Assembly: GCA_029856125.1 (NCBI GenBank)
Contig: JAHQWJ010000080.1
Coordinates: 1 to 64,000 of the forward strand
Source: Promethearchaeia archaeon
GTDB taxonomy: Archaea; Asgardarchaeota; Lokiarchaeia; Sigyniarchaeales; SOKP01
Reading direction: 5' to 3'
DNA: 64,000 nt
Position 1 is the stretch's first letter. The number at the start of each line of letters is the position of its first letter. Below, piece after piece: positions 20,401 to 63,380 of the stretch. The translations under genes and the position numbers were made by a program. The notes below the pieces were generated by a model. The model made no database searches. It was given only the letters and a program-made list of their open reading frames with translations, and was not told where the DNA came from.

Positions 20401-20824
20401 TTACTTCTTCTTCTACTTCGATCTCTTCCTTATCGACAATTTCTCCAGATTCGTCTTCCTTATCTTTGGTTGAGTCTATTTCAGTGTTAGATGTTTCTGA
20501 AGGTGCTATTCCTACTTCTTGCATTAGAGCAAATTTAGCTTCATTTGACAGGGGTTGATCAATTTCATCCTTCTGCGCTTCTTGAAGAATCGATAAATTT
20601 TCTAAAGTTAATTCTTGATCGAGAGAAAATTGAGTTCGCGAATCGCCTTCTTGTAACTCCTTCCACTGAAACTCTTCAATAGCATCTAACGCATTATCTA
20701 GGAATTCAGAGGCGTATTGCTGATGTTTCCAAAAACCAAACTCAAAACCCACTAACTGAGTCCGCTTTCTCATAAATTGTGCTATCGTTCCTTGCTTTAT
20801 TCTGCCTTCTTCTTCAAAGGTAAT
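17432..20824 (-). CDS. top6B: DNA topoisomerase VI subunit B, enlarged (about 1130 aa) with insertions and C-terminal HeH-like and winged-helix domains
   Basis: EFLDNALDA, DNGIG, TRGSQGFG, HGT, KPHP, RFVNRTP, FKSQSK. The conserved N-terminal helix (GTIAQFMRK) begins upstream of ATG 20773; proposed ATT start at 20824, 8 nt after GGTG. Confidence 0.93.
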   Translation of the reverse strand: MTFEEEGRIKQGTIAQFMRKRTQLVGFEFGFWKHQQYASEFLDNALDAIEEFQWKELQEGDSRTQFSLDQELTLENLSILQEAQKDEIDQPLSNEAKFALMQEVGIAPSETSNTEIDSTKDKEDESGEIVDKEEIEVEEEVKRIIEDMDEIIQPVETIVNIEPLVIIRMRESEAASFLTSELSQKNVMSYTFEIFDNGIGMHKGDMRKFGKYLASSKSLELKQTRGSQGFGAPSAFSDAQNTTGKPIVAVSKSKGSFYATVSEFFTTSKNEKKYLVRPTEVDSKFLHGTYIKLNYLNVKYTRGFVDTYIKETALMNPHITLIFIDPYGKEWIYRRLVSSFPRQPQYAKPHPSSTNIGDLQDLLTKSENLTISAFLQDNFVRMSSKLAKEILKIAERNLEDKTSLMILKNGFINKVVKRSDLIYFFKYEKRVYGRSTKPRDKLIIYNIDSEELKNKYWESIDKHNKFDKDLERLYREIKKLHNRIDKSETKKDIKKIEKEISNLLNNVDRLFQERLKIKNELEKIFKDNTGLIEAKKLKNRVELEDLINGVQISKVRPSELTNNQFNSLFHAFKSVKYMSPPTDTAIPVGDIVLENTLIKEIGLKISENIDDFDDPIENVTTSFDILQEELKRDQDKKKIHTESEIKDFTLTPEDVKNFNSRILVSIDIKDQYLEPEEFQKTIEKKLNSTTEVQKDSYREVFDFFTEIYKKDDDFISAETRPPTSGKGLAYVVEAALAYCNDSKKLDTPKRSRDVLSRFVNRTPKLRDSADCAITKAVQSVNWKNYKLDVFDNNLPKGPIKLLVNVSGPYVHLMFKSQSKNALAEDEDLLKEIKFCLEAIGRRLRIYLNRKANIRKSEKRAGLIEKYIPIFVQSAYNIVSQGEGKFKGKISEKELENLMRAAIGVKVPPKIKEKKPPEPEKIEVIELEPKKVEIHWEDTGVQKKDIPEKIETKDEFLSERTLLNWTINQLKEYCVERNISLPSKARKLEIIKFIQEFYDKGKPEKRIPVDKVAKLPLKIEPVPPGTLAKKRKQLQIAKGEIIHQQPIRTEPTITAKQLKPVLTQTQLPIITTEKIIDALSEDWQPITALIFKMKIKDMMDARFLQIKLKELERKGLVMIETKMGKKHWKLK

Positions 20825-21047
20825 TTCAATTACACCAATCTGTTTTTTATCATTTAAACTCGATTATCAAATAATTTCATAAAAGATTTTTTAAGTATTA
20901 TAATTAATATTGCACGAAAAATCTAATACTTACGCAAATCAATCAATTTTACAGAATGTATTTGGTCAATCATTTTGAACAGAAATTGAATTACTATTTA
21001 AATCTTTTCTTTAATCGACAAAAAATTTTAAATAGTAGTAGAGATTT

Positions 21048-22325
21048 TTAATTTTCTTTTGATTGGTAATTATCTAAAGCCACATCAATGATTTTTGATG
21101 CTACATATCTTTTAGTATGCTTTTCGATATGAGTTATGTGTTTTTCTTTATTAATTATGTATACTTCATTATCTTTGCTATTGAAACCTATGTCTTCGCG
21201 ACCTACGTCGTTAGCAACTATAAGATCTGCTTCGGACTTTAAAAGTCGATTATAAGCACGATCAATTAATTCTGTTCTTGAAACATTCATTTCGGCTTTA
21301 AAAGCAATTACGAAAAGTTTGTAGTCTTTTCGTCGTGCTACTTTCAATATTTTAGGTGTTAGATGCATGGTAACATTCAGTTTTTCTACACTGTCTGAAG
21401 AAATTTTACCTTCTATGAAATCTACTGGTTTATAATCCGATACCGCTGCAGCAGATATAAATATATCGTAATTTGAGTATGAAAGTTCATCTTTTATCGT
21501 TTTAGTGAAATCATCAGCAGATTCCACATGAATAGTATTTATGTAATCAGGTATTTTTACCATGCATTCACCTGCAACTAGTAATACATCTGCACCTCTA
21601 GCAGAAGCCTCCTTAGCAAGTTCGATACCCATCCTTCCCGATGATTTATTGGATAAATATCGGATTGAATCAATAGCTTCGCGACTAGGACCAGCAGTGA
21701 TTAAAACTTTTTTACCTTCAAGATCTCTTGTAGTAATCAAAAGGTCTATTACTTTATCAATTATATCATCAACCTTTGCAATTTTAGCCTTTCCTTCAGA
21801 TAATCGTGGACCTAATACATTTATACCACATTCTTTCAATCTAGCGATATTTCTCTCTATAATAGGATGAAACATACTTGCATGCATAGCTGGAACTATT
21901 ACAATTGGTATAGAGGATCCAAATGCGGTTGAAACCACAGTAGTAACGGGTGTATCATCAATGCCATTTGCAATTTTAGAAATCGTATTTGCTGTGGCCG
22001 GAGAAACTAATATGATATCTGCTTTTCCGAAATGATTTGGTCTATCACCTGCTAAAAATACATGTTCAACTGCTCCAGTTAACTTAGTTATGACGGGATT
22101 TCCTGTTGCCCAATGCATTAAAGAAGGGTTTATCAATTCAGTAGCAGCTTTTGACATTGTAACAATTACTTCAGCACCTAAACGCATTAACTCTCTGGCA
22201 ATCATAGGAGAATTAATACATGCTACTGAGCCAGTTAAACACATACATATAGTTTTTCCCCTTAATATTGTTCCCTTGCTTTCGATAATATCTTTTGAGG
22301 GGTGTTTCATTAATTCGTTTACCAT
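21048..22325 (-). CDS. coaBC: Bifunctional phosphopantothenoylcysteine decarboxylase/ligase
   Basis: TGSVA, PATANTISKIANG, PAMH, TAGPSREAIDSIRYLSNKSSGRMG, AAVSDY, FKAE, ANDV. Confidence 0.97.
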   Translation of the reverse strand: MVNELMKHPSKDIIESKGTILRGKTICMCLTGSVACINSPMIARELMRLGAEVIVTMSKAATELINPSLMHWATGNPVITKLTGAVEHVFLAGDRPNHFGKADIILVSPATANTISKIANGIDDTPVTTVVSTAFGSSIPIVIVPAMHASMFHPIIERNIARLKECGINVLGPRLSEGKAKIAKVDDIIDKVIDLLITTRDLEGKKVLITAGPSREAIDSIRYLSNKSSGRMGIELAKEASARGADVLLVAGECMVKIPDYINTIHVESADDFTKTIKDELSYSNYDIFISAAAVSDYKPVDFIEGKISSDSVEKLNVTMHLTPKILKVARRKDYKLFVIAFKAEMNVSRTELIDRAYNRLLKSEADLIVANDVGREDIGFNSKDNEVYIINKEKHITHIEKHTKRYVASKIIDVALDNYQSKEN

Positions 22326-22503
22326 GGTTCTGCGATTAATATTAAATTATACTATTATTAAAAAATATGTTTAATTTAAAAATATTGCATTTCATTAACT
22401 CTCTTTGTAAAATGAGGGAACCTTTTATGATTAAGATATTGATAATATTAAATTATTAGTTTGTTCCGGGTCACGATGGCGTTTATGGTGAATTACAATT
22501 AAA

Positions 22504-24888
22504 TTAATTTTTCTCTTCAAACACATTTAGCTTTAAATTTAATTTATAAGCGAAATTTAAAATTTTGTTGAAGATTTCTTGGTTAATAGCGGTTTTCTTA
22601 TCTATTTTTAATATTTCCAATAATTGGCTCCCATAATAGGTTTTTATTAGCTCAGAAATCTGATAAGATAATTTATCATCCTGATTATCACGATAAACTT
22701 TTGCTTGTTCAAATTCTTCTTTTCTTATTTTTAGAATTTCATTCGAGTATTTAACAAAGGGGGTGTGTCGAATTTTTTTAAGATTAAATACCACGGTTGC
22801 TCCGATTTCCCTTAACTTAAGGATATCTTTCATAATCGAGTGTATTTTTTTCATTACTTTTTTTCTATATTCATGTAAGTCACTCTCTTCGTTGAGTAAC
22901 TCATGAAATATCTCAGGATAAGGTAAATCTAATCCTGAAAGTTCAGTTGTTAAATTTAATAAGATAATGAATTGACTCGCATTTTCTCTTGGGTGTTTTT
23001 TTAAAATATCGTAGATGTATCCTTTTTCTTTATTAATAAAGCGAAACAGGAATTTTCTAAAAGCTTTCGCGAATTTCCCGTAATTCGGTATAAAAGACCG
23101 ATTGGTATTATTTAAAACTTTATCATAAGCTTCGAAGGGGCTGATTTTTTTCTCGAGAACAGATGAAACTAAAGACAAAGGGTAATACCCTTCGATAAAA
23201 CTCATCCCTTTTTCTATGCTGCTTATAGCATCTTTGAAAGAACATTTTGTTATAATGTTTATTGTTCTAATTATATTTGTTCTAACAATATTTCCCTCAA
23301 TTTTTATAGGATTTTTCTGACAGAAACACAAATCAAATGGTTTTATATCGTGAAAAAGAGCTGTATTTTGATCAGGTATAACGATTCGCGCACCGTACGC
23401 ATTGACTAAACTACCTTGGCTAGGTTTACTCGCTAAATCCCATTCAATTATTGTTAGATCGTCTATACTTGAGTAACCTTGATCAACATCATAGTTATAT
23501 TCCGTAGGTTTACTTAACAATGAAAAAACATCAACAGTATTAATTTCGTATTTATTTTCTTCGCCCCAAAACTTTGTTTTATAGTAGAGAATATCATGAT
23601 AATTATGTAAATCATCTAAAAATAGGTCCTCAAATATTAAGTAATTTAAACCTATTTCTGAAGGTTTAATTATGGATTTCTTTACACCGTAGAACCCTAA
23701 GTGGTTTATCACATAATTATAAGCCGGGTTATTAAGGTTTTCCTTATCGTGATTAACTTCATAAGCATTACGTTTTTTCCGAAAATCTATTTTTGTTTTT
23801 TTAATGTTATATTTCTCCTTAAAATACCTTAAAAAAGCAAATTTCTTTAAATAGACCTTCTTTTCTAATTCTCTTGTTTCAGTTTTATAAATTTTATATT
23901 CTTCATAATACTGTTTTTTCGGAATTTCGAATACATCGAATTGTCTTTTCATCAACTTTAAAATGTCTAGTACAATAAAGTTATCAATTTCATCTAAAAA
24001 GTACTTCAACATTTTGTATTTAAAAGCATCGTAATCTTCTGATGTGATAATATCTTTAAATACCGGATTAAGGTCAGCTAGAATTTTATATTTTTTCTTA
24101 ACAAAATAGAAGGAAAAATATTTCTCGTTAAATTGGTTGGAGTTTGCCATCTTAACTAAGATAGAAATTAAAGAAACGACAAATGATTCTTTTTTAAATT
24201 CATAGTAATCTAAAATTTTGTCAATAAATTCAATAATTCGAAGTAGATCATAAAAAGTATAAATCGAAACTGATTTTAAAAACGATCTAAAGCCGTCTTC
24301 GATAATATTATCATAAGCGTTAAGATATAAGCCTAAATCGCTACTATAGGCGGATTGGAGAAATTCAAATAGTTCTAAGTAAAGATTGTTTTCTATAGCG
24401 GTCTTTAGATATTTTTCAATTATTGGCTCACAATCCTTGTTTTTAAAAATAGCCTTATTGAGATAATTCAAACCTTCAATACAATTATTACTTTCAATGG
24501 AAGTATTGGCTAGTTCTAAGTAATTTTTACTTTTTTTCTTAGAGCTATAGTCTTCAGATGTAAAGTTGAAATTATTAATTTTATTTAAGATTTTTTTTGA
24601 AATTGACGGTTCTACCATCAGTAGAAGAGTAATCAAGTGAGGACACGCCTTTTTATCGATATCCAACCCCGAAAAAAAGACATCACAATCATGAAAGATT
24701 TCATTTCTCCTCTCATCAATAATAAGATGATACTCGCGTTCTTCATCAAAAATGATTGCTCTTATCTCTATCGGATTTTCTTTTAACGAGATAATATTAA
24801 TTTTATTTATCGGGAACTTTACTGATTCATTATATCTTTCGACTCCGAATCTTTCAGATATTATTTCAGATATGGAATTTTTAGTCAT
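22504..24888 (-). CDS. Hypothetical protein with N-terminal SWIM-like Zn finger, last gene of the MoxR-VWA operon
   Basis: YHLIID...HDCDVF...KKACPHLITLL; 4-nt gap to the VWA gene. Confidence 0.7.
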   Translation of the reverse strand: MTKNSISEIISERFGVERYNESVKFPINKINIISLKENPIEIRAIIFDEEREYHLIIDERRNEIFHDCDVFFSGLDIDKKACPHLITLLLMVEPSISKKILNKINNFNFTSEDYSSKKKSKNYLELANTSIESNNCIEGLNYLNKAIFKNKDCEPIIEKYLKTAIENNLYLELFEFLQSAYSSDLGLYLNAYDNIIEDGFRSFLKSVSIYTFYDLLRIIEFIDKILDYYEFKKESFVVSLISILVKMANSNQFNEKYFSFYFVKKKYKILADLNPVFKDIITSEDYDAFKYKMLKYFLDEIDNFIVLDILKLMKRQFDVFEIPKKQYYEEYKIYKTETRELEKKVYLKKFAFLRYFKEKYNIKKTKIDFRKKRNAYEVNHDKENLNNPAYNYVINHLGFYGVKKSIIKPSEIGLNYLIFEDLFLDDLHNYHDILYYKTKFWGEENKYEINTVDVFSLLSKPTEYNYDVDQGYSSIDDLTIIEWDLASKPSQGSLVNAYGARIVIPDQNTALFHDIKPFDLCFCQKNPIKIEGNIVRTNIIRTINIITKCSFKDAISSIEKGMSFIEGYYPLSLVSSVLEKKISPFEAYDKVLNNTNRSFIPNYGKFAKAFRKFLFRFINKEKGYIYDILKKHPRENASQFIILLNLTTELSGLDLPYPEIFHELLNEESDLHEYRKKVMKKIHSIMKDILKLREIGATVVFNLKKIRHTPFVKYSNEILKIRKEEFEQAKVYRDNQDDKLSYQISELIKTYYGSQLLEILKIDKKTAINQEIFNKILNFAYKLNLKLNVFEEKN

Positions 24889-24892
24889 GGTT

Positions 24893-27394
24893 TTAAAATC
24901 TCGATTTGATAATCTCTGAGATAAGTTTGGGAAATTCGTTCCAATCTTTAATTGTCAAAAGTTGTCCTCCTGCTATTTTTACCATTCTTTGTGCTTCTTT
25001 TAAATTATAGGACGATTCTGGAGAAATTAACACGAAATCTACATTTAAAGAACGAAATTTTCTTAATTCTTCATTAGCTTGTTGAATATCATAAATTTCT
25101 GCATCAGTAAATAGAACATTTAATTTTTCGCGAGAACTAGAATGTTCTTTAAATTGTTTGTTTGCCCATTCTAAAGCACTTTGAAGCCGGGTACCCCCCT
25201 TAGCAGAAACCGTAAGCAGATCATCCGCTAATTTTTCCAAATCTACTTTTTCCGATAATTTCTTTAATACATGCGTATCTGATTCGAAAAAAGCAATACC
25301 AATTTCGTCTTTTCTCATGCCATATACTAACATCGTCACACAAATAGCCATATAAGCAAGCTTGTCTCCGGTCATAGAACCACTGATATCGAGTTCAAAA
25401 CAAAACGAACGCAATCCCTTCGCCGTTTCGTAAACATAAAAATCGTCGTAGTTGATGTGATCCAATTTCTTGCCTTTTTCTAAAAGGTTAAAGATTGTTT
25501 CTTCTAAATCTATATTCTCAAAATCATCCCCGATTGAATATGGTCTAACCAAATTAATAGGTATTGTCCCCGTTGTTGCGCTACCTAATCGTGCTCTGGA
25601 ATAGTAGACACCTAAATCAATTAACATTTTTTTTGCTAATTCTTTTACTTTAACTTTCACTTTTTCAGGTAAACTACTCCGATGAATAAACCATTGTTTA
25701 AGGAGGTTTTCGCCACTTCCAGCAGATAAACAAGATATTACTTTATCCTGCCCTTCTTTACCAGCAATTTTTTGCGCTCCTTTTAATGCCTCACTCATAT
25801 TGTAATGACCAATAGCAGCTAAGGCATCACGGTTATCGTTGGCTAATGCACTGCTTAGTAATTCTTTGATCCTTTCTTTATTTAGTTGATCTTGCAGTTG
25901 GTTAATCATATTGCTAATCCTTTGGAAATCGGCAATTTTTTCTTCAACCATTTTTTTTAATAGTTGATAATTAGGCTCAACAAGTTCAGATATATCCGCT
26001 TCTGACATGCCTAATTCTTCTCCAATTCTTTTAATATCATCAGTATTAGGGCTTAAACCAATTTTCCTTAAGAATTCAGTAGCATTTTTTAATTGATCTG
26101 GCGTATCACAAGCTTCTAATGTTTGAGACATTAAATCGGGCAATTTTTGGGATATTTTCTGACTACACTGAATATTTGGGCAGCTATTCATTAATTGCTG
26201 TATCTGATGGGAAAGAGATTTTAGAGCTTCGAACTCGATATTTTGATTGTTTGCCTCCTTTATGGCATTTTCAAGTGCTTGATTAAATAAATTATTCCAC
26301 GCTTTATTTGCTAAGGCATTTTTTGTCAAAGATTCTAATGAAAGATTCATTTGAGAATTTAAAGATTGCTGATCGAGCTTATTAAGTAACTCTTCTCTTA
26401 AATTTGTTCCAAAAAACTGATCTAGTGAGTCAGCTAGATTGAAATTATGCTCAAAGGAAGACTGGTTTAAGGAGTTATTTAGGATTTTTTCTTGATCAAA
26501 TTTAGGTGTTTCACCTAATGTTTTTGCTGCATTGAACAGTTGATCTAAATTATTAATCTGGTTTTGTAGTTGATTTTTAACTTGTTTTATCTGTTCTAGT
26601 ATATCTTGATTGTCTGATGTTTCCCCAATAAATTTTATTGATTTTAAAAGATCATCAAGCTTATTCGCATTAATTAACTTCGTTAAATCTTCTAGGATGT
26701 TTTGATCAGTGAGAGCCTTACTTGCAAGTTTTTCCCATTCTCGTAGGGATTCTTGCTGAATCAAGTCGTTTAAACCTAAATTAGAACCAGCTTTTAAATC
26801 CTCCGGACTCAATGAGTTAATTTTTTGTTCCAACCTTTTTTGTGCTTCCTGTATTAACTCTTCTAAAGAAGAAATCTCTTCTTTATACAATTCTGAGTCA
26901 TCATTGAAAAAATTTAAAGCAGATTTATAAGGCTCTTCTTCTCGTTTAGCGTTTAATTCGTCTAAAAATTCCTCTAGTTTTTGAATTTTATTCGTATCAA
27001 GCAATTTTGTAGCTTCGATTTCATCAATCATTTCTTGAAGCTTATCAAGTTCTGTTAATATGTCAGAATCTTCTAATTCTTCCCCAAATTCACCCTCTAA
27101 GTTATCATCTTCTTGAAAGAATGAATCCATCATATCCTTTTTATAATTAGGAAAGAGAATCTGAAAAGCTAAATCTTTTGCTAATTCTTGATTGTCTGGA
27201 AAAGAAGTCACTGTGCTTATTTCTATGTAATCGTTTGCAGTTACCACGCCTTTACGATAATATCTTGATAAGAGTAATTTAGGGATAGATAGAACTTGTC
27301 GAGAACTTGGTATCTGAACGATATCGCGATGTCTTCTCATCTTACGAATGAAATCTACAGCAAATTCACAAGGATTTTCTGGAAAAACGCCCAT
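24893..27394 (-). CDS. VWA (MIDAS) domain protein, MoxR partner (CoxE/ViaA-like)
   Basis: IDLEETI, LDISGSM, GGT, LFTDA; long helical middle region. Confidence 0.9.
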   Translation of the reverse strand: MGVFPENPCEFAVDFIRKMRRHRDIVQIPSSRQVLSIPKLLLSRYYRKGVVTANDYIEISTVTSFPDNQELAKDLAFQILFPNYKKDMMDSFFQEDDNLEGEFGEELEDSDILTELDKLQEMIDEIEATKLLDTNKIQKLEEFLDELNAKREEEPYKSALNFFNDDSELYKEEISSLEELIQEAQKRLEQKINSLSPEDLKAGSNLGLNDLIQQESLREWEKLASKALTDQNILEDLTKLINANKLDDLLKSIKFIGETSDNQDILEQIKQVKNQLQNQINNLDQLFNAAKTLGETPKFDQEKILNNSLNQSSFEHNFNLADSLDQFFGTNLREELLNKLDQQSLNSQMNLSLESLTKNALANKAWNNLFNQALENAIKEANNQNIEFEALKSLSHQIQQLMNSCPNIQCSQKISQKLPDLMSQTLEACDTPDQLKNATEFLRKIGLSPNTDDIKRIGEELGMSEADISELVEPNYQLLKKMVEEKIADFQRISNMINQLQDQLNKERIKELLSSALANDNRDALAAIGHYNMSEALKGAQKIAGKEGQDKVISCLSAGSGENLLKQWFIHRSSLPEKVKVKVKELAKKMLIDLGVYYSRARLGSATTGTIPINLVRPYSIGDDFENIDLEETIFNLLEKGKKLDHINYDDFYVYETAKGLRSFCFELDISGSMTGDKLAYMAICVTMLVYGMRKDEIGIAFFESDTHVLKKLSEKVDLEKLADDLLTVSAKGGTRLQSALEWANKQFKEHSSSREKLNVLFTDAEIYDIQQANEELRKFRSLNVDFVLISPESSYNLKEAQRMVKIAGGQLLTIKDWNEFPKLISEIIKSRF

Positions 27395-27412
27395 AAAATT
27401 ATTAGATACCTC

Positions 27413-28354: not shown

Positions 28355-28449
28355 CGTAAAAATCTACTAGTTTAATTGATGTGTATAGTAATTATTAATT
28401 TTTAATCTATATTTTTATATAGTATAAATTTTGATACTTTGTTAGAAAT

Positions 28450-29383: not shown

Positions 29384-31762
29384 ATGCAAGTAGAGCAAAT
29401 TTCTCCATCTGATTATAAGGATCGCAGTATAAGAATGAAAAAAGAAGTTATTTCCCAACCACATGAACTCTGTATAGAAAGAGCTAAACTTTTCACTGAG
29501 TCGTATAAAGCTACAAAGAATGAACCCCAAAACATTAGGTTTGCAAAAGCTATGTACCATTTATTGTCGAATATGACAATAAAAATACGGGAAGATGAAT
29601 TCGTTGTTGGGAATCGATGTACTAAATTTGTTGGAACACCCTTATATCCTGAAGTACGCGTTGATACAATTGAGCAAGATATAAACCTCTATAACAATCG
29701 AGAAACTCAACGGCTATTACTTTCAGATGACGATAAACAAATCATAATCGAAGAAATTATACCATATTGGAAAAACGAAGAAGAGACTACCAAATCCAGA
29801 TTTGACTCTTATTTAAATCCCGAATTAACCGATCTCATGCTAAATCTACTCTATATCGTGGATACTAACATTACTAACGGAACGGGACATTTCTTCCCTG
29901 GACATCATAATGTTTTAAAAGCGGGATTTAACGGCTTAATTCAAAAAGCAAGAGAAAAGATGAAAGAATTTTCGAAAGATCAAAAGAAGATGGACTTTTT
30001 GGAGTCAGTTATTATTGTTTTAGATGGTTCTAAAGAGTTTATTCAAAGATTCTCAATATTGGCAACTGAATTAGCAGAAAAAGAAGACGATCGTAATAGA
30101 AAAAAAGAGCTTTATGAAATTGCTGAAATTTGTTCTAATATCTCCGGTAACCCACCATCCTCATTTAAAGAAGCCCTTCAATTAATGTATTTCACTCACG
30201 TAATTGCGGGTCTCGAAGATGGAGGCTTTGCTATTAGTATAGGACGCATTGATCAAGTTCTCTATCCTTTTTATTTTGAGGATAAAAAAAAAGGAAATAT
30301 AACTGATGAAGAAATACAATTTTTAATTGAATGTTTTTACTTGAAACTTTCAACTCTATGGAATTATGTCCTCCATAAAGGAATTAGAGCTGCAGAAGGA
30401 CCGCCTCTTACTGCAAATTTGACGATAGGGGGCGTTGATGAGGATGGAAACGACGCTACTAATCAATTGTCGTATCTATTCTTAGATTCGTACAAAAAGC
30501 TAAAAACAGTCCAACCTACTTTTTCTGTTCGTATCCATAATAAATCTCCAGACGATTTAATTGTAAAAACAGGAGAAGCTATTAAATCAGGAGCTAGTAT
30601 TGCGTTGTTTAACGACGTTGTTATGATTCCAGGTCTTATAAATCTTGGTTACACTTTTGAAGATGCGCGTGAATATGCACCAATAGGGTGTGTAGAACCA
30701 GCACATACTTGTAAGTCTTTTGGATGTACAAACGCGACTCAGTTAAATATTGTGAAGTGTTTAGAATTAACTTTAAACAATGGGACAGATATGGCTACAA
30801 GAAGGGCATATGGCATTGAAAATACAAAAAATCTCTCCTCATACCAAGATTTATGGGACGAGTTTTCGAACCAACTTAGCTTTTTTGCTAAAAAATTAGT
30901 AGAAACAATGTCATTCCTTGAAAAAGCTATTGCTGAGCTCAATCCGCAACCCTTTTTATCCGCAACTATCGACGATTGCATTGAAAAGGGGTGTGATATC
31001 ACAAGTGGAGGCGCTAAATATGATTTTACTACGACTCAACTAATTGGTTTATCTACAGTTGTCGATTCTCTGGCTGTAATTAAAAAAATGGTTTACGAGG
31101 AAAAATTATTTTCTTTAGAAGAATTAATAAAGATAGTGTCAAAGAATTACCGAGGTACTTATAATGGGAAAAAGGGAGAAGAAATTAGGCAAATCTTTAT
31201 TAATAAAGTCCCTAAGTTTGGAAACGATAACGATTATGTCGACTTCATAGCTCGCGATGTAGCAGAATTGTTCTGTAAGGAAATTCTTAAACATAAAAAT
31301 TATAGAGGCGGAAAATATCATCCCGGAATTTATTCTACAGCTTTTCACATAGCATTTGGAGTTTTTACAGCGGCCTCCGCTGATGGAAGGAAGGCAAGAG
31401 AACCACTCTCAAATGGAGTTGGTCCAACCAACGGAAGGGATAAAAATGGTCCAACAGCGATACTTAATTCAATTATGAAGCTGGATAATGAGTTAATAAC
31501 TAATGGAAACTCAGTAATATTAGCTTTTCATCCAAACACACTAAAGATAGAATTGTTCCTTCCACTCATTAGAACCTATTTTGAAGAAAATGGAGGTTAT
31601 CACATTCAATTTAATGTAGTTGGAAAAGAAATTCTATGTGATGCTCAAATAAATCCAAAGGAATATCAAGGCTTAGTTGTACGGATCGCTGGTTATGCCG
31701 TATTGTTTACAGAATTATCTAAATCCGCACAAGACGAGATTATTGGTCGAACGGAGTTTTAA
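29384..31762 (+). CDS. Glycyl radical enzyme (PFL2/dehydratase-like), substrate unknown
   Basis: Single-Cys loop IGCVEP, PKFGND, ADGRKA, C-terminal VRIAGY glycyl loop. Confidence 0.93.
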   Translation: MQVEQISPSDYKDRSIRMKKEVISQPHELCIERAKLFTESYKATKNEPQNIRFAKAMYHLLSNMTIKIREDEFVVGNRCTKFVGTPLYPEVRVDTIEQDINLYNNRETQRLLLSDDDKQIIIEEIIPYWKNEEETTKSRFDSYLNPELTDLMLNLLYIVDTNITNGTGHFFPGHHNVLKAGFNGLIQKAREKMKEFSKDQKKMDFLESVIIVLDGSKEFIQRFSILATELAEKEDDRNRKKELYEIAEICSNISGNPPSSFKEALQLMYFTHVIAGLEDGGFAISIGRIDQVLYPFYFEDKKKGNITDEEIQFLIECFYLKLSTLWNYVLHKGIRAAEGPPLTANLTIGGVDEDGNDATNQLSYLFLDSYKKLKTVQPTFSVRIHNKSPDDLIVKTGEAIKSGASIALFNDVVMIPGLINLGYTFEDAREYAPIGCVEPAHTCKSFGCTNATQLNIVKCLELTLNNGTDMATRRAYGIENTKNLSSYQDLWDEFSNQLSFFAKKLVETMSFLEKAIAELNPQPFLSATIDDCIEKGCDITSGGAKYDFTTTQLIGLSTVVDSLAVIKKMVYEEKLFSLEELIKIVSKNYRGTYNGKKGEEIRQIFINKVPKFGNDNDYVDFIARDVAELFCKEILKHKNYRGGKYHPGIYSTAFHIAFGVFTAASADGRKAREPLSNGVGPTNGRDKNGPTAILNSIMKLDNELITNGNSVILAFHPNTLKIELFLPLIRTYFEENGGYHIQFNVVGKEILCDAQINPKEYQGLVVRIAGYAVLFTELSKSAQDEIIGRTEF

Positions 31763-31855: not shown

Positions 31856-31927
31856 GGGCCTGTAGATCAGTCGCAGATCGCTTGGTTCGCAATCAAGAGG
31901 TCACGGGTTCAATTCCCGTCAGGTCCA
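31856..31927 (+). tRNA. tRNA-Ala(CGC)
   Basis: GGGCCTG/CAGGTCC acceptor with G3:U70, anticodon arm CTTGG-TT CGC AA-TCAAG, T arm ACGGG-TTCAATT-CCCGT, discriminator A. Confidence 0.93.
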
Positions 31928-31948
31928 CTATTACTTTTAAAAAGAAAA

Positions 31949-32824
31949 TTAAATTGTATCTTCTCCAACTCCTAATTGTGATATCATCATTCTCTTGAGC
32001 TCCTCTTTGTTTTTAGGTAATCCAAACATATCCGCATATTTATCAGTTGTATTTAATTCTGCTGACCTTCCTTTTTTTACCGCTGTTATTAGATCGTTGT
32101 CCAAGAGATATTTCACATGCTCGTAAGCGCCACTTCCTCTTAATTTAATTACGGTTGACTTTAAAATTGGCTGTTTCAGAGCAATTACAGTAAGTGTTCT
32201 TAAATAGCGCTCAGCAATAGCACCACCTTTAGCGAATTTGGAAACTGTTTCTGTAAGTTCCGGTCTTAGCTGCATTTGATATTTTTCTCCAATTTGGGCG
32301 ACAATCAATGCGCCTTCACGGTCTAAATAGTCAAAAGCAACAACATTTACAAGTTCTTCTACTTCTTTTTTTGGGATTTCTAATTTAGTTGATAATTCTT
32401 CTACATCCAGAGGTCTACCAGCCGCATAAAGAGCGCCCTCTATTAGATTTCTCCGTAGAACATTTAATTGTAATTCTAATTCTTCTTTCGTGAGTTCTTT
32501 AGGTATATGAAATTCAACTGTATCATCTCCTATAACTTCAGTCTCTCGTTCGCTTAAGTTTTCTTCTGAGGGGTCGAGACTCGATGATTCTTCCCCCTCA
32601 ATATTTAATTCTTCTTCAATAAACTCTTGGAGATCTTCTTCTTCTTTAAAATCTTGTTTAGGAAAATCTTCTATGGTTTCTTTGGTTTCTAATTCGATCT
32701 CAATATCTTCTAAATTCCTTTCTTCTTGAGGAATTTCTTCGGGATTAGTCTCATCTAAAGGTTCTACTTCATTCGTTTCGGCTTCGTATTGATTTTCGTG
32801 TTCTTTTTCGTTATTTTCGTTCAG
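31949..32824 (-). CDS. scpB: SMC-Scp complex kite subunit ScpB with about 120-aa acidic N-terminal extension
   Basis: Frame open from CTG 32824 (7 nt after GGTG; in-frame TAG two codons upstream). Contains IEGALYAAGRPL and TLTVIALKQPI..RGS...HVKYL...TT..Y...FGL. The ORF track shows only the last 119 aa. Confidence 0.9.
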   Translation of the reverse strand: MNENNEKEHENQYEAETNEVEPLDETNPEEIPQEERNLEDIEIELETKETIEDFPKQDFKEEEDLQEFIEEELNIEGEESSSLDPSEENLSERETEVIGDDTVEFHIPKELTKEELELQLNVLRRNLIEGALYAAGRPLDVEELSTKLEIPKKEVEELVNVVAFDYLDREGALIVAQIGEKYQMQLRPELTETVSKFAKGGAIAERYLRTLTVIALKQPILKSTVIKLRGSGAYEHVKYLLDNDLITAVKKGRSAELNTTDKYADMFGLPKNKEELKRMMISQLGVGEDTI

Positions 32825-32853
32825 TTTCTATCACCAAAAATTAGGATTGTAAT

Positions 32854-33858
32854 TTAACTTTTTAAATTTATTGAGAAATCTTTAAAATCTTCGTCTTGAA
32901 ATAGTTCTAACTTATTCCCTGTTGAGAGGAACATTAAAGCTAAAAACATGCGAACAAAAGCGAACTTCTTACCTATGTCGCTTTTTTCTTCGATATTAAT
33001 AATTTCTGCCATGTCATAAAAGGAGGTTTCTTTATCGTCAAGTTTTATTTTAGTTTTTATTCTGTTAAACCAAGCGTTGTGTAACTCTTCTACAGTTTGT
33101 TCCTTCCCGCTAATGTGTTTTAAAAGTTCTTTTGGCAGTTGCGCTTTAGATTTTTTTTGAATTCGCTGTTCTTTTAATTCATCCCGTCTCATTCTTCTCC
33201 TTTTTAGTTTTTCTTTTTTTTGCATTGTCTCAATTATTGCAGATCTCATAGCGTCAAATAATTCGTCTTTAGTGGAGATTAACATTTTAGGCTGAATAGG
33301 TTGTGGTAAAGATTTGGGTATCGATCTACCGTGCCTTGCCCTGAATTGCGCCAATTCTTCCTTTTTCTGAATCTGTTCTTCATCCCGTATTATGCTAGAG
33401 ATTTTGTAGTGATGTAATACTGCCGAAGTTTTAAGCGCGATTCCAGCAATTTTATAATTAATTAAATCTTCATGAAGCATATTATTGAAGAATTTATCAA
33501 CTAATGAAGCTAGATCGTAAAAGGCTACATTTGATTCCTTCGCGACTTCGGGATCTAAAAGGCTTGAAAAAGGCGGTTTCTGCCAGAACTTTAATTCTAA
33601 CTTTTCTTTATGCAATAATGCGGGATCTTCTTCCTCGCCGGCGACTAACTCTTCTTCCAATACTTCTTCATCCATATCATCTTGAGTTCGGTCTACAAAT
33701 TCTGGATGTGAAGCGATCTTTTCTATAAGTTTAATAATTTCATTTTTTTTTGATTTAGACGGTATCTTTATGTTGTTTTTACTTGCAAATTCCCTAAGTT
33801 GCTTTACAGACCATTCTTTGAAGTTGTATTTTTTCTCTTCACTCTCATTTTCTGGAAC
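32854..33858 (-). CDS. scpA: Kleisin ScpA with N-terminal SAP/LEM/HeH-like extension
   Basis: N-kleisin DLASLVDKF...IAGIALKTSAVLHHYK and C-terminal WH FLALMFL...LELFQDEDF; between smc and scpB. Frame open 61 codons upstream of ATG 33675 to GTT 33858 (7 nt after GGTG); exact start uncertain (ATC 33861 or ATA 33864 possible). Confidence 0.85.
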   Translation of the reverse strand, partial: VPENESEEKKYNFKEWSVKQLREFASKNNIKIPSKSKKNEIIKLIEKIASHPEFVDRTQDDMDEEVLEEELVAGEEEDPALLHKEKLELKFWQKPPFSSLLDPEVAKESNVAFYDLASLVDKFFNNMLHEDLINYKIAGIALKTSAVLHHYKISSIIRDEEQIQKKEELAQFRARHGRSIPKSLPQPIQPKMLISTKDELFDAMRSAIIETMQKKEKLKRRRMRRDELKEQRIQKKSKAQLPKELLKHISGKEQTVEELHNAWFNRIKTKIKLDDKETSFYDMAEIINIEEKSDIGKKFAFVRMFLALMFLSTGNKLELFQDEDFKDFSINLKS

Positions 33859-33884
33859 GATTATACACCTTAAGTTTTTAATTT

Positions 33885-50982: not shown

Positions 50983-51199
50983 ATCTATTTTTATAAAAGA
51001 TAAAAATCATACATTTTAACCTTTAGCAATAGATTTTTTTTTAGCGTTTTGTGTTTTACTGCTTATCATTATTTTTCTATTATTAATTAATAATTGTGGA
51101 GAAGAAAAAATAAAGAAATAAAAAGTATCAATATTATATTAATAATACTTAAGTGAAGTAAAACCTCAAATAGTATTCTACCGTGGATGGTGATATGGA

Positions 51200-51607
51200 T
51201 TGGAGTTTGGTACAGACCTTGGAATTGGGCCCGATGAAATCGAAAAAATAAGTCCTCAAATTACTTTTATCACTTCAAACGCGGATATTGAAGCTATCGC
51301 TCTTGTGAGCTTGGAAGGTTATCAGATCGCTTTTTCAGCCCTTCCACAATATCAAGTTGACGGAGATCAGTTTTGTGGGCTAGCAAGTGCATTATTAATG
51401 ACTGGAAGTTCAACAATTAAAACACTATTTCAAGAAGATTTAAGTGAAATAATTGTGAGAGCTGAGAATGGTTATGTAATTGTAAGCAACGCAGGGCGTC
51501 TAGTAATCGTGTGTGCAGGAACGCTCATTGATACATTGATGAAAACTGTTAAAGTAATGAGGGTTGCTGCAAAGAATTTAGCTATGATTTTTGAACAAAA
51601 ACAATAA
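51200..51607 (+). CDS. Roadblock/LC7 (MglB-like) domain protein
   Basis: IEAIALVSLEG, LASALL, EIIVRAENGYVIV; TTG start 7 nt after GGTG. Confidence 0.9.
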   Translation: MEFGTDLGIGPDEIEKISPQITFITSNADIEAIALVSLEGYQIAFSALPQYQVDGDQFCGLASALLMTGSSTIKTLFQEDLSEIIVRAENGYVIVSNAGRLVIVCAGTLIDTLMKTVKVMRVAAKNLAMIFEQKQ

Positions 51608-53352: not shown

Positions 53353-53404
53353 AATAAAGATTTTAAAATTTCTCAGATAATATCTAGAAGAAAACATAAA
53401 GAGA

Positions 53405-54499: not shown

Positions 54500-54554
54500 A
54501 TTGAAGGATGTTATTAGCAAAATTTTTCAATCACAAAATTTTATTTAAAAGAAC

Positions 54555-55058: not shown

Positions 55059-55064
55059 AAAATT

Positions 55065-55484: not shown

Positions 55485-55636
55485 AATTAGTATTATTAAT
55501 ATTATTTTTTTTATTAAAATTTTGAAATTTACACAGAGTATAAATTATATTTGTATCTGTGAAAAATGGAAAAATAGAAAAAAATGAATGCATGATTAAT
55601 AAATAAGAAAGCAATAATTTTTAACGATAATGCAAA

Positions 55637-58425: not shown

Positions 58426-58458
58426 TAAAAGAAATAAATTTTAAGAATATAAATTTTG

Positions 58459-58875
58459 TTAGTTTTCTTGAACTAAAAACAAGTAAACTATTATTATTAA
58501 TAGGCCTATTAGACTGAAAGAAAAAACTATAGAATCTCTAAAAGATTGGATTAAAGAAAAGATAAAAATAAGCACAATTAACTTCAAATCTAATGGTTTA
58601 CCAGTTAATTCCTTATAATTTCCGATACTAATCATCATAAAAATGAAGAAAAATAGGATTACTAGAACCTTAACAGTGATATCTAGAGTTTGCAACAGGA
58701 TGGTTTCGCGTGCAAACAGAGATAGATAACCACCGTTTAATAAAATTGATATTATTAATAGTATTCCGGCAATAATGGCTGATAGTATGACTGAACGATG
58801 AGCAGATTTTTCTTTTAATTTGGGTTTTCTTTTGACCGTTCCTGATTTTAAATTTTCTTTTTTTATTTTTGACAT
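58459..58875 (-). CDS. Small four-TM membrane protein
   Basis: Basic N-terminus and four hydrophobic segments. Confidence 0.75.
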   Translation of the reverse strand: MSKIKKENLKSGTVKRKPKLKEKSAHRSVILSAIIAGILLIISILLNGGYLSLFARETILLQTLDITVKVLVILFFFIFMMISIGNYKELTGKPLDLKLIVLIFIFSLIQSFRDSIVFSFSLIGLLIIIVYLFLVQEN

Positions 58876-58884
58876 GCTAGCACA

Positions 58885-59706
58885 TTAACTCCTAATTCTT
58901 TCGATTTCTTTCTTAAGTCGTGTAATTCGATAGATATAATAAGCAAAAAATGCTCCAATCGTAGAAAAAATGACAATTGTGGAGATTGACATCAAAAGCT
59001 CACCAATAGGTAATTTGGGGGCTCCGGGGGGGTATTGCAAATCGATAGAAATAATATTCGCAATAATAATTCCAATGGGATAGTCTGTAGATTTACCGAA
59101 TATTATCTTAAAGTTAAATGTATCACCATAGTCTAATTCTACATCCTCTATACCACCTTCGAGATTTTCAACAGGCATGGAAAACTCATAAGTTATTTGA
59201 TTTCCCTCTAATTTCGCAGCTCCATCACCGTCAGGATTCATGTCTCCATAATAACCCGTATCGTTAATATAATAATCTAAATAACTATAACTGTTCGTTG
59301 ACATGTTTGAAAATTGAACAATTTTAGCATCAGTGAAGTCCAAATCTGCATCCCAATCTGCAATTAAAATCCCAAGAAATTCTTTATCGAATTCACTAGA
59401 GCTATGATCGTCGAAATCAAATCGAGCTAAAATATATAAGTTTGGTTCAGCTTGTATAACCCATAGTTCAATAGGTAAACCATCGCTTTGGTTTAATAAA
59501 TCAGGAAATAGCTCAATTTCTAACTTTTCCGCTGAATCCCATTCGCCTGTGGCACCATCAACAACGCCGTCTATAACAGGTGCTGTTCCAAATCCCACAT
59601 CAATCTCAATTGGAGTCCCATAGCTTTTTTCAATGAGGAATGCTGAACTTACAAGTATCTGAGCAATGAAGATGAAAATAATAATGGTTGTTGTGTGTTT
59701 TTTCAC
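58885..59706 (-). CDS. Secreted, C-terminally anchored protein with CBM9/DOMON-like domain
   Basis: Signal-like N-terminus, APVIDGVVD...EWDSA, NLYI, YEFSMP, C-terminal TM helix. Confidence 0.7.
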   Translation of the reverse strand: MKKHTTTIIIFIFIAQILVSSAFLIEKSYGTPIEIDVGFGTAPVIDGVVDGATGEWDSAEKLEIELFPDLLNQSDGLPIELWVIQAEPNLYILARFDFDDHSSSEFDKEFLGILIADWDADLDFTDAKIVQFSNMSTNSYSYLDYYINDTGYYGDMNPDGDGAAKLEGNQITYEFSMPVENLEGGIEDVELDYGDTFNFKIIFGKSTDYPIGIIIANIISIDLQYPPGAPKLPIGELLMSISTIVIFSTIGAFFAYYIYRITRLKKEIERIRS

Positions 59707-59909
59707 TTTTATATAGCCACTTTTTTATCATTAAGCGATAGTTCAATTTTACTTTTAATTAAAGAAACTTAATAAAGTTGATAATTAAAATTGAATTTAA
59801 TATTTTTTCTTTGTCTTAGCAAATTATGAGGATTTTCAATCAAAAATTTTTGGGATTTCCTTTGTGAAGAAGAGATAGTACTCTTTTCAATATTTAAAGA
59901 ACTTTCATT

Positions 59910-60359
59910 TTATGAAAGATAATTAGGTAATAGAACGCTGCAATTGAATTTGTTTAAATAAGTTACAATATAATTTATCAAGCGTTTTATATCATGTTTA
60001 GTTTCAAGAATATTACTATTATTATATTCTGCGAATTCCTTTGGTCCAATTGCAATTAACAGCCCCGATAGATCTTTCTCTCTCTTAATAAAAAGCCAAA
60101 AAGGATTTTTTTTTTCACTATCTTTAATTAGGAGTAGCATCCATGGATTTAAAGTCCATTCTTTAGAATCGGGTCCGATTACTTTTTCTATAGCATGCCC
60201 TGTAGAATATTTTTTAGTTATTTTTATAGCTTTTACTAACCGGTTAAAGTAGGACCGTTTCAGTTTTAAATATCCTTTGAAATAAGACTTGGCGTCGTAG
60301 AGTTCTAATTCATTACTTGTTCCATCTGCGAATTTCAGATCAATTTTCCAAGTACTCAT
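59910..60359 (-). CDS. Hypothetical protein, co-oriented with the RNase P genes
   Basis: 149-aa ORF, 22 nt downstream of pop5. Confidence 0.75.
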   Translation of the reverse strand: MSTWKIDLKFADGTSNELELYDAKSYFKGYLKLKRSYFNRLVKAIKITKKYSTGHAIEKVIGPDSKEWTLNPWMLLLIKDSEKKNPFWLFIKREKDLSGLLIAIGPKEFAEYNNSNILETKHDIKRLINYIVTYLNKFNCSVLLPNYLS

Positions 60360-60381
60360 ATTAAATCCAAATAATTTTTCT

Positions 60382-60762
60382 TTAGCTTATTTCCATAATT
60401 TGAATATCTTTATTATTCTTATTATTTCTATCCAAAAATAATTTTTTAGTAATTTGAATACTACGAATAGTCCCGGATGTTTTTATAGGAGAAAAAACGA
60501 TTTTATTACCAGATATTTCAGTGATTAATGTCAAAGCGGATATCACGACTTCTTTTGTTTGATGAGAACATCTTATAATTCCAAAACCTTCTAAAAAATT
60601 AATATCAACCAACCACAATCCTACTCTGCTAGCTTCTTTTAAGCCAAAATACTTCCATAGGGATGCCCATATCGAATTTAGAATCTCTTGATTATTCAAA
60701 TGTTTAATATGTTCCGATATCACTTTAAATAGGATATACCTATGACGTTCATTTTTTACGAC
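60382..60762 (-). CDS. rnp2: RNase P subunit Pop5/Rpp14
   Basis: ERHRYILFKV (upstream of the track GTG 60723), GIIRCSH, KTSGTIR; proposed GTC start at 60762, 7 nt after GGTG. Confidence 0.88.
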   Translation of the reverse strand, partial: VVKNERHRYILFKVISEHIKHLNNQEILNSIWASLWKYFGLKEASRVGLWLVDINFLEGFGIIRCSHQTKEVVISALTLITEISGNKIVFSPIKTSGTIRSIQITKKLFLDRNNKNNKDIQIMEIS

Positions 60763-61487
60763 TACTCTTCACCCTGATTTATTATTTTTACTCCCGATTC
60801 TATGAAATTTCTATCTTGACGCATTTGTACTCGATTTAGAAGAGAAATTACATTTTTAGAGAAACAATTTTTAGCTCGCAGCATTGAAATGCCTAAAAGG
60901 GTATGACAAACGCTAATTAAAGCTCGAGGATGTCGTATTGAATAAAGATCGTCAAAATTTCCGCTTATGATATAGTTTGCATTTAATTTATTAGCGAGTT
61001 GTACGCCTCGGTAAAGATTTCTTAGATTTTTGGACTGTAATGATTTATTTTTTACCATTATTGAAGCGAGCGAAAATTCGATAAACGACTTATTCTGTTT
61101 GGTAAGAGAAATTACACCTGGAAAAATCGTTTTGAGTACAGCCTGCTCTGAAAACGAGATTAAGTCCACTCTGGAATCTTTAGCAGCCTGAATTTGAATT
61201 TTTTTATCTGGAGATTCAACCACTATAATGTTGGATGATTGTCCAATTCCTTTGAGTTTCTTAATTAGGCTTTCTAGATTTTTTGGATTAATATTAGTAC
61301 GATATTTAACATTTATATTTGTGATCTCTTCTATTCTTCTTTTTAAATCTGGTTGTATTTTTTCTCTATTATTTTCAAGCTCTACAATCACATTTTGAAC
61401 CCCTAATAATTTACAAAAATGTAACTTCTGCTCAATTTCCTTGAAGTTGTTAGTTTTTACCCTTAACCTTGATTCAAAATATGACAA
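60762..61487 (-). CDS. rnp3: RNase P subunit Rpp30
   Basis: A.KDSRVDLI, IEFSL, IISGN...IRHPRAL; adjacent to pop5. Confidence 0.88.
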   Translation of the reverse strand: MSYFESRLRVKTNNFKEIEQKLHFCKLLGVQNVIVELENNREKIQPDLKRRIEEITNINVKYRTNINPKNLESLIKKLKGIGQSSNIIVVESPDKKIQIQAAKDSRVDLISFSEQAVLKTIFPGVISLTKQNKSFIEFSLASIMVKNKSLQSKNLRNLYRGVQLANKLNANYIISGNFDDLYSIRHPRALISVCHTLLGISMLRAKNCFSKNVISLLNRVQMRQDRNFIESGVKIINQGEE

Positions 61488-61607
61488 TCAGATCTTAACC
61501 TCTAATTTCAGATCGGGATTTATCTGTAGCGTTTTCGATGTTTTAAGTGTTCTTAAATAAAAAAAAATTTATTAGAATAAATATTTTACATGTTATATAT
61601 GTTATAA

Positions 61608-62906
61608 GTGGTTCTATTGGCTAATAAACGAAAGCTTTCTGATATAAAGAAAAAAATTCATAACGGCAATGCAAATGTTCTTACTGCTCAGGAATTTATC
61701 AGTCGCATTGAAAAGGGAGAAAACTTTAAGTTTGAAGACATTGATGTGATTACGACCGCCACTAAAGGTCTAATGAGTGGAATTATGGGGGTATTTTCCT
61801 TTAGATTAGCACCCCCAAAAACCTTAAGAAAATTTACTGAAATCACCCTAAACGGAATCTCAGCTTTTCCTGGACCGTGCCCCAATGAGTATTTAGGAAT
61901 TGCTGATCTAATTGTTTACGGTACTGCTCAAAGTCATTCAAGAGAAAATTATTGTGGAGGATCCTTGTTTAGAGAACTAGTGGAAGGAAAACCCATCTCC
62001 ATCCATGCTAAAAGCAGTGAGGGAAATATTATCGATATGGATTTAACATTAAAAGAGATGCAATTTGCAAAACTTATGGGGACTCGTCAAGCGATAAAAA
62101 ATTACAATGCGATGCTTAACTGCGAAACATTTCAAGTAGATACTATATTTTCTTGTCTTCCTTTTGAACCTAATAAGTCAGAATTAACATTTTCTGGCTG
62201 TGGTGCTCTAAATCCTTTTCAAAACGATCCTAATTTCCGGACTTTTGGAGTGGGATCCCCACTCTTAGTTAATGGAGCTCAAGGGTATTTGATGGGACCA
62301 GGAACGCGAAATTATATCGCAAAACCTAATATGATGACAATCGCCCCCATGGATCAAATGAAGCCGGAATATTTGGGAGCTTTTAAAACTTCTTATGGAT
62401 TAGAACCCATATGCTCAATAGCTATTCCCATACCTATATTAACCGACAAAATTTTTGATGACATTGTCAAATCAGACAAAGATGTTAATTTAACGATTTT
62501 AAGTCTCGTAGGACGTGAAAAAGTTGGAGAGATCACTTATGCAGATGTATGGGATAATAATTTCGTAATGAAGTTTAACCCTAAAGCGTGTAGTAAAGGA
62601 TATAAGTGTAAAGTTATAGACAACTGCCCTACAAATGCTTTTATTATAAGAGAGGGATTAATCTCAGCAATTGATAGAGCTAGATGTTTTAATTGCGGAA
62701 ATTGTGCGAAGTTATGTCCCGACGCTTTTAGTATGGACTTAAAATCAATTCAGTATGAAGGAAAGGAAATTCCCGTTGTTTTAAGGCAATCTGATAGGGC
62801 AGGAGCTATCATGCTAGCTGAGGAACTTAAACAACAGATTCTAAAAGAGGAATTTCAGTTAAAAAAGCCAACTGGAATGCTAGATTTTGCTGAAAAATTA
62901 AAATAG
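61608..62906 (+). CDS. DUF39/homocysteine-biosynthesis-like Fe-S protein (methanogenesis marker 16 type)
   Basis: DVITTATKGLMSG, GPCPNEYLG, FSGCG.LNP, C-terminal CFNCGNC..CP, RQSDR. Confidence 0.8.
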   Translation: MVLLANKRKLSDIKKKIHNGNANVLTAQEFISRIEKGENFKFEDIDVITTATKGLMSGIMGVFSFRLAPPKTLRKFTEITLNGISAFPGPCPNEYLGIADLIVYGTAQSHSRENYCGGSLFRELVEGKPISIHAKSSEGNIIDMDLTLKEMQFAKLMGTRQAIKNYNAMLNCETFQVDTIFSCLPFEPNKSELTFSGCGALNPFQNDPNFRTFGVGSPLLVNGAQGYLMGPGTRNYIAKPNMMTIAPMDQMKPEYLGAFKTSYGLEPICSIAIPIPILTDKIFDDIVKSDKDVNLTILSLVGREKVGEITYADVWDNNFVMKFNPKACSKGYKCKVIDNCPTNAFIIREGLISAIDRARCFNCGNCAKLCPDAFSMDLKSIQYEGKEIPVVLRQSDRAGAIMLAEELKQQILKEEFQLKKPTGMLDFAEKLK

Positions 62907-62936
62907 CATCAAATCGAGATTAAAGGTGAATTCTAA

Positions 62937-63380
62937 ACGACTGATATCAAATTAGATAAATTTGATCAAATTGGGATTGTAGTTAATAATATTGAAAAAG
63001 CGGCTCAAATGTATCGAAAGCTTTTTAACTTTAAAGGGAACATAAATATCGTTGAACAGAGCGCAACCGTTAACTACAAGGGAAAAGATGTGACCTTTAA
63101 CATGAAAAAAATTATGCAGTTCTTTGGAGGCAAACAATTTGAAATCGTTGAAGTAGTTGATGCAACTGGTCCCAATCTTTACTCGGAGTTTATAGCAGAG
63201 GGAAATACTGGCTTACACCACTTAGGTATTTACACAAAAAACGCTGAAGAATTAATTGAACAATTTAAACAACAATTTGATGTGGAAACCGCTCAAGTGG
63301 GAAAATTGGGTAAGTTAACTTTTACTTACTTAGACACTAAAGAGATTCTAGGATATTACATTGAAATCCTTGAGTTTTAA
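62937..63380 (+). CDS. VOC/glyoxalase (methylmalonyl-CoA epimerase-like) protein
   Basis: DQIGIVVNNIEKA lies upstream of the track ATG 63009; QFEIVE, GLHHLG, IEILE. Proposed ACG start at 62937, 8 nt after GGTG and directly after an in-frame TAA. Confidence 0.88.
   Translation, partial: TTDIKLDKFDQIGIVVNNIEKAAQMYRKLFNFKGNINIVEQSATVNYKGKDVTFNMKKIMQFFGGKQFEIVEVVDATGPNLYSEFIAEGNTGLHHLGIYTKNAEELIEQFKQQFDVETAQVGKLGKLTFTYLDTKEILGYYIEILEF

Follow-up and report, generated by a model that had tools for sequence, protein, structure and literature searches.

Probable non-canonical translation starts positioned by Shine-Dalgarno sites in a family of Lokiarchaeia

Translation starts outside the AUG, GUG and UUG set have been described in bacteria, where they are guided by a Shine-Dalgarno (SD) sequence at the AUU starts of Escherichia coli infC and pcnB (10.1101/063800) and at the near-cognate starts of Staphylococcus aureus infC, ccpN, cvfC1 and citZ (PMC13009471); in Deinococcus, dnaA starts at ATC and rpsL at CTG (PMC2830850). 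Output from such codons in E. coli is 1–2% of that from AUG for AUA, AUC, AUU and CUG and below 1% for other codons (10.1101/063800). Archaea are described in reviews as starting at AUG, GUG and UUG, and SD sequences as rare in Lokiarchaea (PMC7531240, PMC12993045). Here we analyse a 64,000-nucleotide stretch of DNA (the window; contig JAHQWJ010000080.1, positions 1–64,000) from an uncultured lokiarchaeon in which five genes, top6B, scpB, scpA, pop5 and a gene of the VOC/glyoxalase family, appear to begin at ATT, CTG, GTT, GTC and ACG, each set 7–8 nt downstream of a GGTG SD site, and we extend the analysis to the whole genome and to related archaea.

The starts proposed here resemble those of infC, pcnB and ccpN in that ATT, ATA, ATC or CTG stands in frame at the optimal distance from the SD and is missed by gene finders, and they resemble the Deinococcus cases in that a ribosomal protein is among the affected genes. 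They differ from the bacterial type in scale (two to four genes per genome there, at least 50–60 here, or ~10% of genes with a strong SD), in having an ordinary rather than an extended SD, in the use of the two-mismatch codons GTT, GTC, GTA and TTA together with ACG, and in their setting, an archaeal machinery with aIF1 and aIF2 (archaeal initiation factors) and no IF3. Judged from the DNA, they seem to work as the infC/pcnB/ccpN starts do while lacking two features of that class, its rarity and its one-mismatch codon set. Mitochondria start at ATN, GTG and TTG (NCBI tables 2, 4 and 5) and likewise tolerate variation in the third position while keeping the middle U; their mRNAs are, however, mostly leaderless and their machinery is reduced, whereas the lokiarchaeon is a free-living cell that has all the factors, and its sites are defined by an SD that fixes where initiation would occur.

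Precedents in archaea are few. The Asgard tubulin AtubA of Kariarchaeaceae likely starts at an ATT following a ribosome-binding site, and its deposited protein lacks the first strand (PMC13394414); this is the only published Asgard ATT start that our literature search found, a single gene of Heimdallarchaeia that was called rare and for which no genome-wide pattern was described, in contrast to the genome-wide pattern seen here. In Haloferax volcanii, ribosomes were detected at near-cognate codons, which make up ~30% of 160 putative alternative sites (PMC7261190), but these are secondary sites, excluded from analysis, in a mostly leaderless organism, whereas here they are the apparent sole start of conserved genes. 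A search of the literature outside subscription journals found no systematic report of genome-wide non-canonical starts in Lokiarchaeia.

Five sites in the window

The window is C84:1-64000 of a 3.69-Mb genome of 32.7% GC. The species belongs to a Lokiarchaeia family that we call f1; its sister family, f2, includes cultured species. An earlier note on this DNA had proposed the five starts, and all five codons proved to lie in frame with GGTG 7–8 nt upstream, behind in-frame stops and with conserved sequence beginning before the first canonical codon. Four of the genes are on the minus strand: top6B (topoisomerase VI subunit B; 17432–20824, 1130 codons) begins at ATT 20824, 8 nt from GGTG at 20836–20833; scpB (31949–32824, 291 codons) at CTG 32824, 7 nt from a GGTGAT starting at 32835; scpA (32854–33858, 334 codons) at GTT 33858, 7 nt from GGTG at 33869–33866; and pop5 (RNase P protein; 60382–60762, 126 codons) at GTC 60762, 7 nt from a GGTGA starting at 60773. 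The VOC gene (62937–63380, plus strand, 147 codons) begins at ACG 62937, 8 nt from a GGTGA starting at 62925. The name scpA is by synteny, given only because the gene lies between smc and scpB; the presumed ScpA matched no ScpA model in Pfam or NCBIfam. Two TTG starts elsewhere in the window, which the earlier note had offered as controls, indeed lie exactly 7 nt after GGTG (10818–10831, minus strand, in a 708-codon gene, and 51189–51202, plus strand); the names given to these genes there, mcm and roadblock, are used as labels only.

The reading frames leave little room for canonical starts. An in-frame stop lies 13, 1, 12, 2 and 0 codons upstream of the proposed start in top6B, scpB, scpA, pop5 and VOC, respectively, and the first ATG, GTG or TTG lies 17, 172, 61, 13 and 24 codons downstream. 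The Pfam ScpB domain spans residues 127–277 and so begins upstream of the first canonical codon, the TTG at codon 173; the Pfam Pop5 and glyoxalase (VOC) domains both start at residue 8, again before it. In ScpA a Rho_N/Ish1-like domain (Pfam, residues 13–46) precedes the first canonical codon, and the 17 additional N-terminal codons of top6B are conserved across 30 orthologues. The SD is predicted to pair more strongly at the proposed starts (energies of -5.4 to -8.8) than at the canonical codons further on (-0.8 to -4.0). The pop5 GTC shares its G with the TAG that ends the preceding gene, rpp30, and pop5 in this genome has no one-mismatch codon ahead of its conserved motif. In scpA, an in-frame ATC at 33861, 4 nt after the SD, is an alternative to the GTT. 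If they start at the proposed codons, the proteins are cut short by standard gene finders: public calls are 108 aa for ScpB (291 from CTG), 273 for ScpA (334 from GTT), 113 for Pop5 (126 from GTC) and 123 for VOC (147 from ACG), which bears out the suspicion that N-termini in this lineage are mis-annotated.

Comparison of orthologues places the proposed starts in a column that holds ATG in relatives. The top6B column has ATT in ~21 of 30 orthologues and ATG or GTG in most others, and in two genomes the ATT immediately follows an in-frame stop. In the scpA column, which sits 6–7 nt after the SD throughout family f1, most members have ATT, ATA or ATC, three have GTT or GTA and two have ATG. The pop5 column, 7 nt after GGTG, has GTC in three genomes and ATA, ATC, GTG or ATG in other members of the genus; in the sister families pop5 starts canonically. 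By contrast, the scpB column holds CTG in this species only, its nearest relatives carrying TTG or ATG and one genome ATT, and the VOC column is canonical in 23 of 23 orthologues, relatives that are 95–96% identical having ATG in an identical context. The non-canonical starts of top6B, scpA and pop5 are thus old and family-wide, whereas the CTG of scpB and the ACG of VOC arose recently and are private to this species.

Some further features accompany these genes. The Rho_N/Ish1-like domain of ScpA is helical, possibly DNA-binding, and absent from the shortened annotation. Top6B, at 1130 residues, is about twice the length of its 539-position family model and carries long insertions. In a related genome (G111; contig C199, ~31663–31692, locus L161) top6B has a frame-shifting, hairpin-folding insertion of 29 nt after codon 36, and the gene is also split in G006, G021, G168, G174, G179, G188, G175 and G164 while intact in the window; the insertion is possibly a short archaeal bulge-helix-bulge intron in mRNA. 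A tRNA-Ala(CGC) gene (31856–31928) directly follows scpB, three copies of tRNA-Leu(TAG) lie on the same contig as the window (C84:111342-116235), and many tRNAs of this genome were detected only if introns were allowed.

Genome-wide analysis of orphan Shine-Dalgarno sites

To tabulate start codons across the genome, genes were called with a dicodon model and SD matches of at least 5 bases were collected near their 5' ends. Such matches were served by ATG, GTG or TTG at 4–12 nt in 601 cases; those without were termed orphan SDs, and the codon in frame at 6–8 nt was scored. ATT, ATA or ATC (ATH) occupied this position at 63 of 150 orphan SDs (42%; ATT 36, ATA 20, ATC 7), compared with 17 of 300 out of frame (5.7%; p = 2e-20) and 53 of 450 in frame two to four codons downstream (11.8%; p = 2e-14). 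A second gene model gave ATH at 59 of 132 orphan SDs, alongside 491 canonical SD-led starts. In a strict subset defined after this first test, with a GGTG core and an extension of at least 10 codons, 48 of 54 sites carried ATH (33), GTH (9), ACG (3), TTA (2) or CTG (1) vs 50 of 270 controls, and GTH alone was enriched (9/54 vs 4/270, p = 2e-5). The codons used therefore go beyond the one-mismatch codons of NCBI table 11, with GTH at 9/54, TTA in the gene for ribosomal protein eS28, and ACG. The mix seen in the window is unrepresentative, as ATT, ATA and ATC dominate over CTG and ACG genome-wide.

Two further properties are those of genuine starts. Ser, Pro, Thr and Ala are typical second residues of proteins, and one of these four comes next after the ATH start in 59% of cases, whereas Ile codons inside genes are followed by one of them in 22% (p = 6e-10). 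Spacing is also informative: ATG tolerates 5–11 nt, whereas TTG, GTG and the non-canonical codons concentrate at 6–8 nt, with a peak at 7 for TTG, GTG and ATH. The SD is complementary to the 3' end of the genome's own intact 16S rRNA (anti-SD at C84:104186). After background subtraction, most likely at least 50–60 genes start in this way, ~2% of all genes and ~10% of those with a strong SD; this is a floor, because cases with a weak SD such as top6B and aIF1 fall outside the test. The proposal that SD spacing can direct initiation at non-canonical codons is thereby supported well beyond the window.

The affected genes include those for the essential ribosomal proteins uS4 (ATC) and eS28 and those for ATP synthase subunit D, MvhD, TusA and a ubiquitin-family protein. 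Two Ras-family GTPases also belong here: their domains begin at residue 5–6, yet no ATG occurs before positions 80 and 98, respectively. The single-copy eS28 gene (C12:49239-49487, locus L391) contains no ATG, GTG or TTG in its 83 codons; its probable start is TTA (or ATC), and a pattern search found that seven genomes of the genus keep the TTA at 7 nt despite differences in the spacer, which in two of the seven contains no ATC. The uS4 start flips between ATG and a non-canonical codon among close relatives. Since ribosomal proteins such as eS28 and uS4 use them, these starts must work reasonably well.

ATG genes that lack an SD have a Kozak-like context, in which A peaks at -3 (58%, compared with ~44%) and G at +4, and a weak TATA-like peak 26–32 nt upstream, suggesting that some mRNAs are leaderless.

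Proposed mechanism, initiation machinery and competing explanations

Taken together, we consider the proposed codons very probably real translation starts, and we think it likely, though with less assurance, that in family f1 the SD acts as a ruler while start-codon proofreading is relaxed. SD pairing would place the codon 6–8 nt after GGTG in the P site of the 30S subunit, where an ordinary Met-tRNAi (initiator tRNA, anticodon CAU) would be accepted although it pairs at no more than two of the three bases, or at the middle U alone, so that the protein would begin with Met despite the non-ATG codon. Position may in effect substitute for codon identity, because TTG, GTG and the non-canonical codons are concentrated at 6–8 nt while ATG ranges over 5–11. 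Proofreading by aIF1, aIF1A and aIF2 would be set lower in this family than in other archaea, and in SD-led genes ATG could drift nearly neutrally to ATT, ATA or ATC (often) and to GTH, TTA, ACG or CTG (sometimes). The argument for relaxed checking is that ribosomal proteins, needed at one per ribosome, require an efficiency far above the 1–2% of E. coli.

A candidate cause is low or altered aIF1, a factor that in archaea destabilises complexes on non-AUG codons in an SD-dependent manner (PMC6237735). The aIF1/SUI1 gene of this genome (C84:118620) itself starts at ATT, and its start is non-canonical in 29 of 29 members of family f1, 1 of 5 of the sister family, 13 of 44 other Asgard archaea and none of 68 non-Asgard archaea sampled, all 68 of which have ATG. 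In family f1 the codon is ATT, ATC or ATA, ~10 nt after a weak SD and forced by in-frame stops in several genomes; elsewhere in Asgard archaea the weak starts are CTG or GTG in Thorarchaeia and CTG or ATA in further families. The AUU or AUA start of infC and the poor-context AUG of eIF1 are cited as autoregulation of a fidelity factor (in PMC13009471 and PMC6237735). By analogy, the conserved weak start of aIF1, at long spacing, is a candidate for infC-type feedback, although infC operates under strict checking whereas many non-canonical starts are used here. Loki aIF1 also carries changes at four positions conserved elsewhere, with three more in most of family f1. Some Asgard families have an aIF1 without the zinc knuckle, and a few members have two aIF1 copies. 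In family f1 the last two residues of ribosomal protein uS9 are Phe-Arg, where the sister family and Thorarchaeia keep the Tyr of Tyr-Arg (L364, L365), a residue that in yeast influences the choice of start codon (PMC6344880); the pattern search for this change was noisy and matched other families too, and it is a lead only. More tentatively still, the SD-positioned ribosome may accept almost any NUN codon, GUC, GUU and UUA included, well enough for ribosomal proteins, while aIF1, through feedback on its own non-AUG start, would govern stringency, in a loop found repeatedly among Asgard classes and comparable to the autoregulation of eIF1 in eukaryotes; this fuller picture is possible but somewhat doubtful.

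Several observations weigh against relaxed proofreading. Inspection of the machinery, which the earlier note had suggested, revealed ordinary components: tRNAi has A1-U72, three G-C pairs and a CAU anticodon, the 16S G1338-A1339 motif is present, and aIF1 (basic loop intact), aIF1A and aIF2-beta are all found. Loss of any of these three factors and alteration of the tRNAi gene or of G1338/A1339 are thus rejected as causes, and the relaxed checking that had been proposed is a deduction from the pattern of starts. Thorarchaeia have a CTG-started aIF1 yet no genome-wide excess (1/10), and the sister family shares the aIF1 substitutions but has little or no excess (4/11 in G032, 0/7 in G194); aIF1 alone is thus not a sufficient explanation, and neither its changes, its weak start nor the uS9 tail tracks the trait exactly. 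Some GTH and TTA sites have an alternative ATC or ATT at 3–5 nt. The starts are deduced from DNA contigs, and the relatives compared are non-independent samples.

The most serious competing explanation, though an unlikely one, is that the starts are real but were selected as weak, limiting or regulating particular proteins under ordinary proofreading, as for ccpN and cvfC1 of S. aureus and pcnB of E. coli. Such starts give ~10% of AUG output in S. aureus (PMC13009471), and retention of a non-canonical start in most of family f1 suggests selection at scpA, top6B and aIF1. Against this, such starts occur in the genes for uS4, eS28 and ATP synthase subunit D; closely related genomes differ in whether uS4, pop5, scpB and VOC begin at ATG or at a non-canonical codon; and about one in ten strong-SD genes is affected. 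Selection for weakness is likely true of aIF1 and a few genes but not of the whole set, and a general dosage brake, the earlier idea that these starts limit complex subunits, is unlikely given the ribosomal and ATP synthase genes and the ATG/ATH flips. It is decidedly improbable that the codon is read as cognate through a modified initiator anticodon, such as the 5-formyl-C34 of mitochondria, or that the mRNA is edited to AUG: third-position variants do dominate among the orphan-SD starts and ACG is one C-to-U edit from AUG, but no single chemistry can convert ATT, ATA, ATC, GTC, TTA and CTG, and the genomic tRNAi is a normal CAU species (a modification would be invisible in DNA).

Restarting by ribosomes that leave an upstream gene, with codon identity of minor importance, would fit the one-base overlap of pop5 with the rpp30 stop, found also with GTG or ATG in relatives, and the position of scpA, scpB and VOC 26–30 nt after upstream stops. 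However, a same-strand stop within 40 nt upstream is less common for genes with an ATH start (25%) than for ATG genes led by an SD (47%), and top6B is 224 nt from its neighbour; reinitiation is a very remote prospect as a general account and may help at pop5 only. Hardly any weight falls on artefact, whether through errors of assembly, gene decay or initiation in truth at the canonical codons downstream. The ACG of VOC and CTG of scpB are species-private and could therefore be recent mutations that do slight harm, and CheckM-type contamination is 6%. Yet contigs of runs from four studies, one of them perhaps the source sample, agree in every letter with the top6B, scpB and scpA sites, and other assemblies (ENA, JGI, Logan) repeat the VOC ACG in 10 of 10, the pop5 GTC in 8 of 8 and the scpA GTT and scpB CTG in 6 of 6, which answers the concern about ATG consensus errors. 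The frames are intact and under purifying selection (in scpB, the part of the domain upstream of the TTG shows 36 differences that are synonymous and 8 that are not), the genes are single-copy, the non-canonical sites are spread over 40 contigs, and eS28 has no downstream canonical codon at all. Read-through of TGA is unneeded, since in many orthologues the stop that closes the frame is TAA or TAG; nor is the GTG within the SD needed as a start, as it either lies in another frame or stands at 1 nt.

Range across archaea and implications

A frame-blind count of GGTG-N(n)-ATH over the genome had no power, and lineages were compared on selected regions in samples of 50–400 kb. Pooled loci of family f1, an ascertained set, had ATH at 17 of 24 orphan SDs. 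In the sister family, G032 with weaker SDs included had 13 of 55 (p = 0.035) and carries a PIN-domain gene with ATA; in G194 (L355) the aIF1A gene has ATT where G032 has ATG, its first canonical codon being codon 34, and in G030 the aIF1 gene has ATA. Other Asgard families, Bathyarchaeia, Thermoplasmata, Woesearchaeota and Methanomicrobia together had 8 of 160, Methanococci had zero orphan SDs, and low-GC controls had 1 per 131 canonical SD starts; controls of 31% GC rule out low GC alone as the cause. The trait thus appears strong in family f1, weaker in the sister family and unseen elsewhere in samples of this size.

For annotation, public proteins of family f1 are truncated or missing: ScpB is reduced to 108 of 291 residues, eS28 is uncallable and small GTPases lose the half that holds the P-loop. 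Such truncations affect Asgard comparative genomics, phylogenomic markers and expression constructs. If our reading is true, a genome in which about one in ten strong-SD genes starts elsewhere than at a canonical codon would be a natural test of how start-codon fidelity is enforced, set within an initiation system of the archaeal/eukaryotic kind and in the group closest to eukaryotes.

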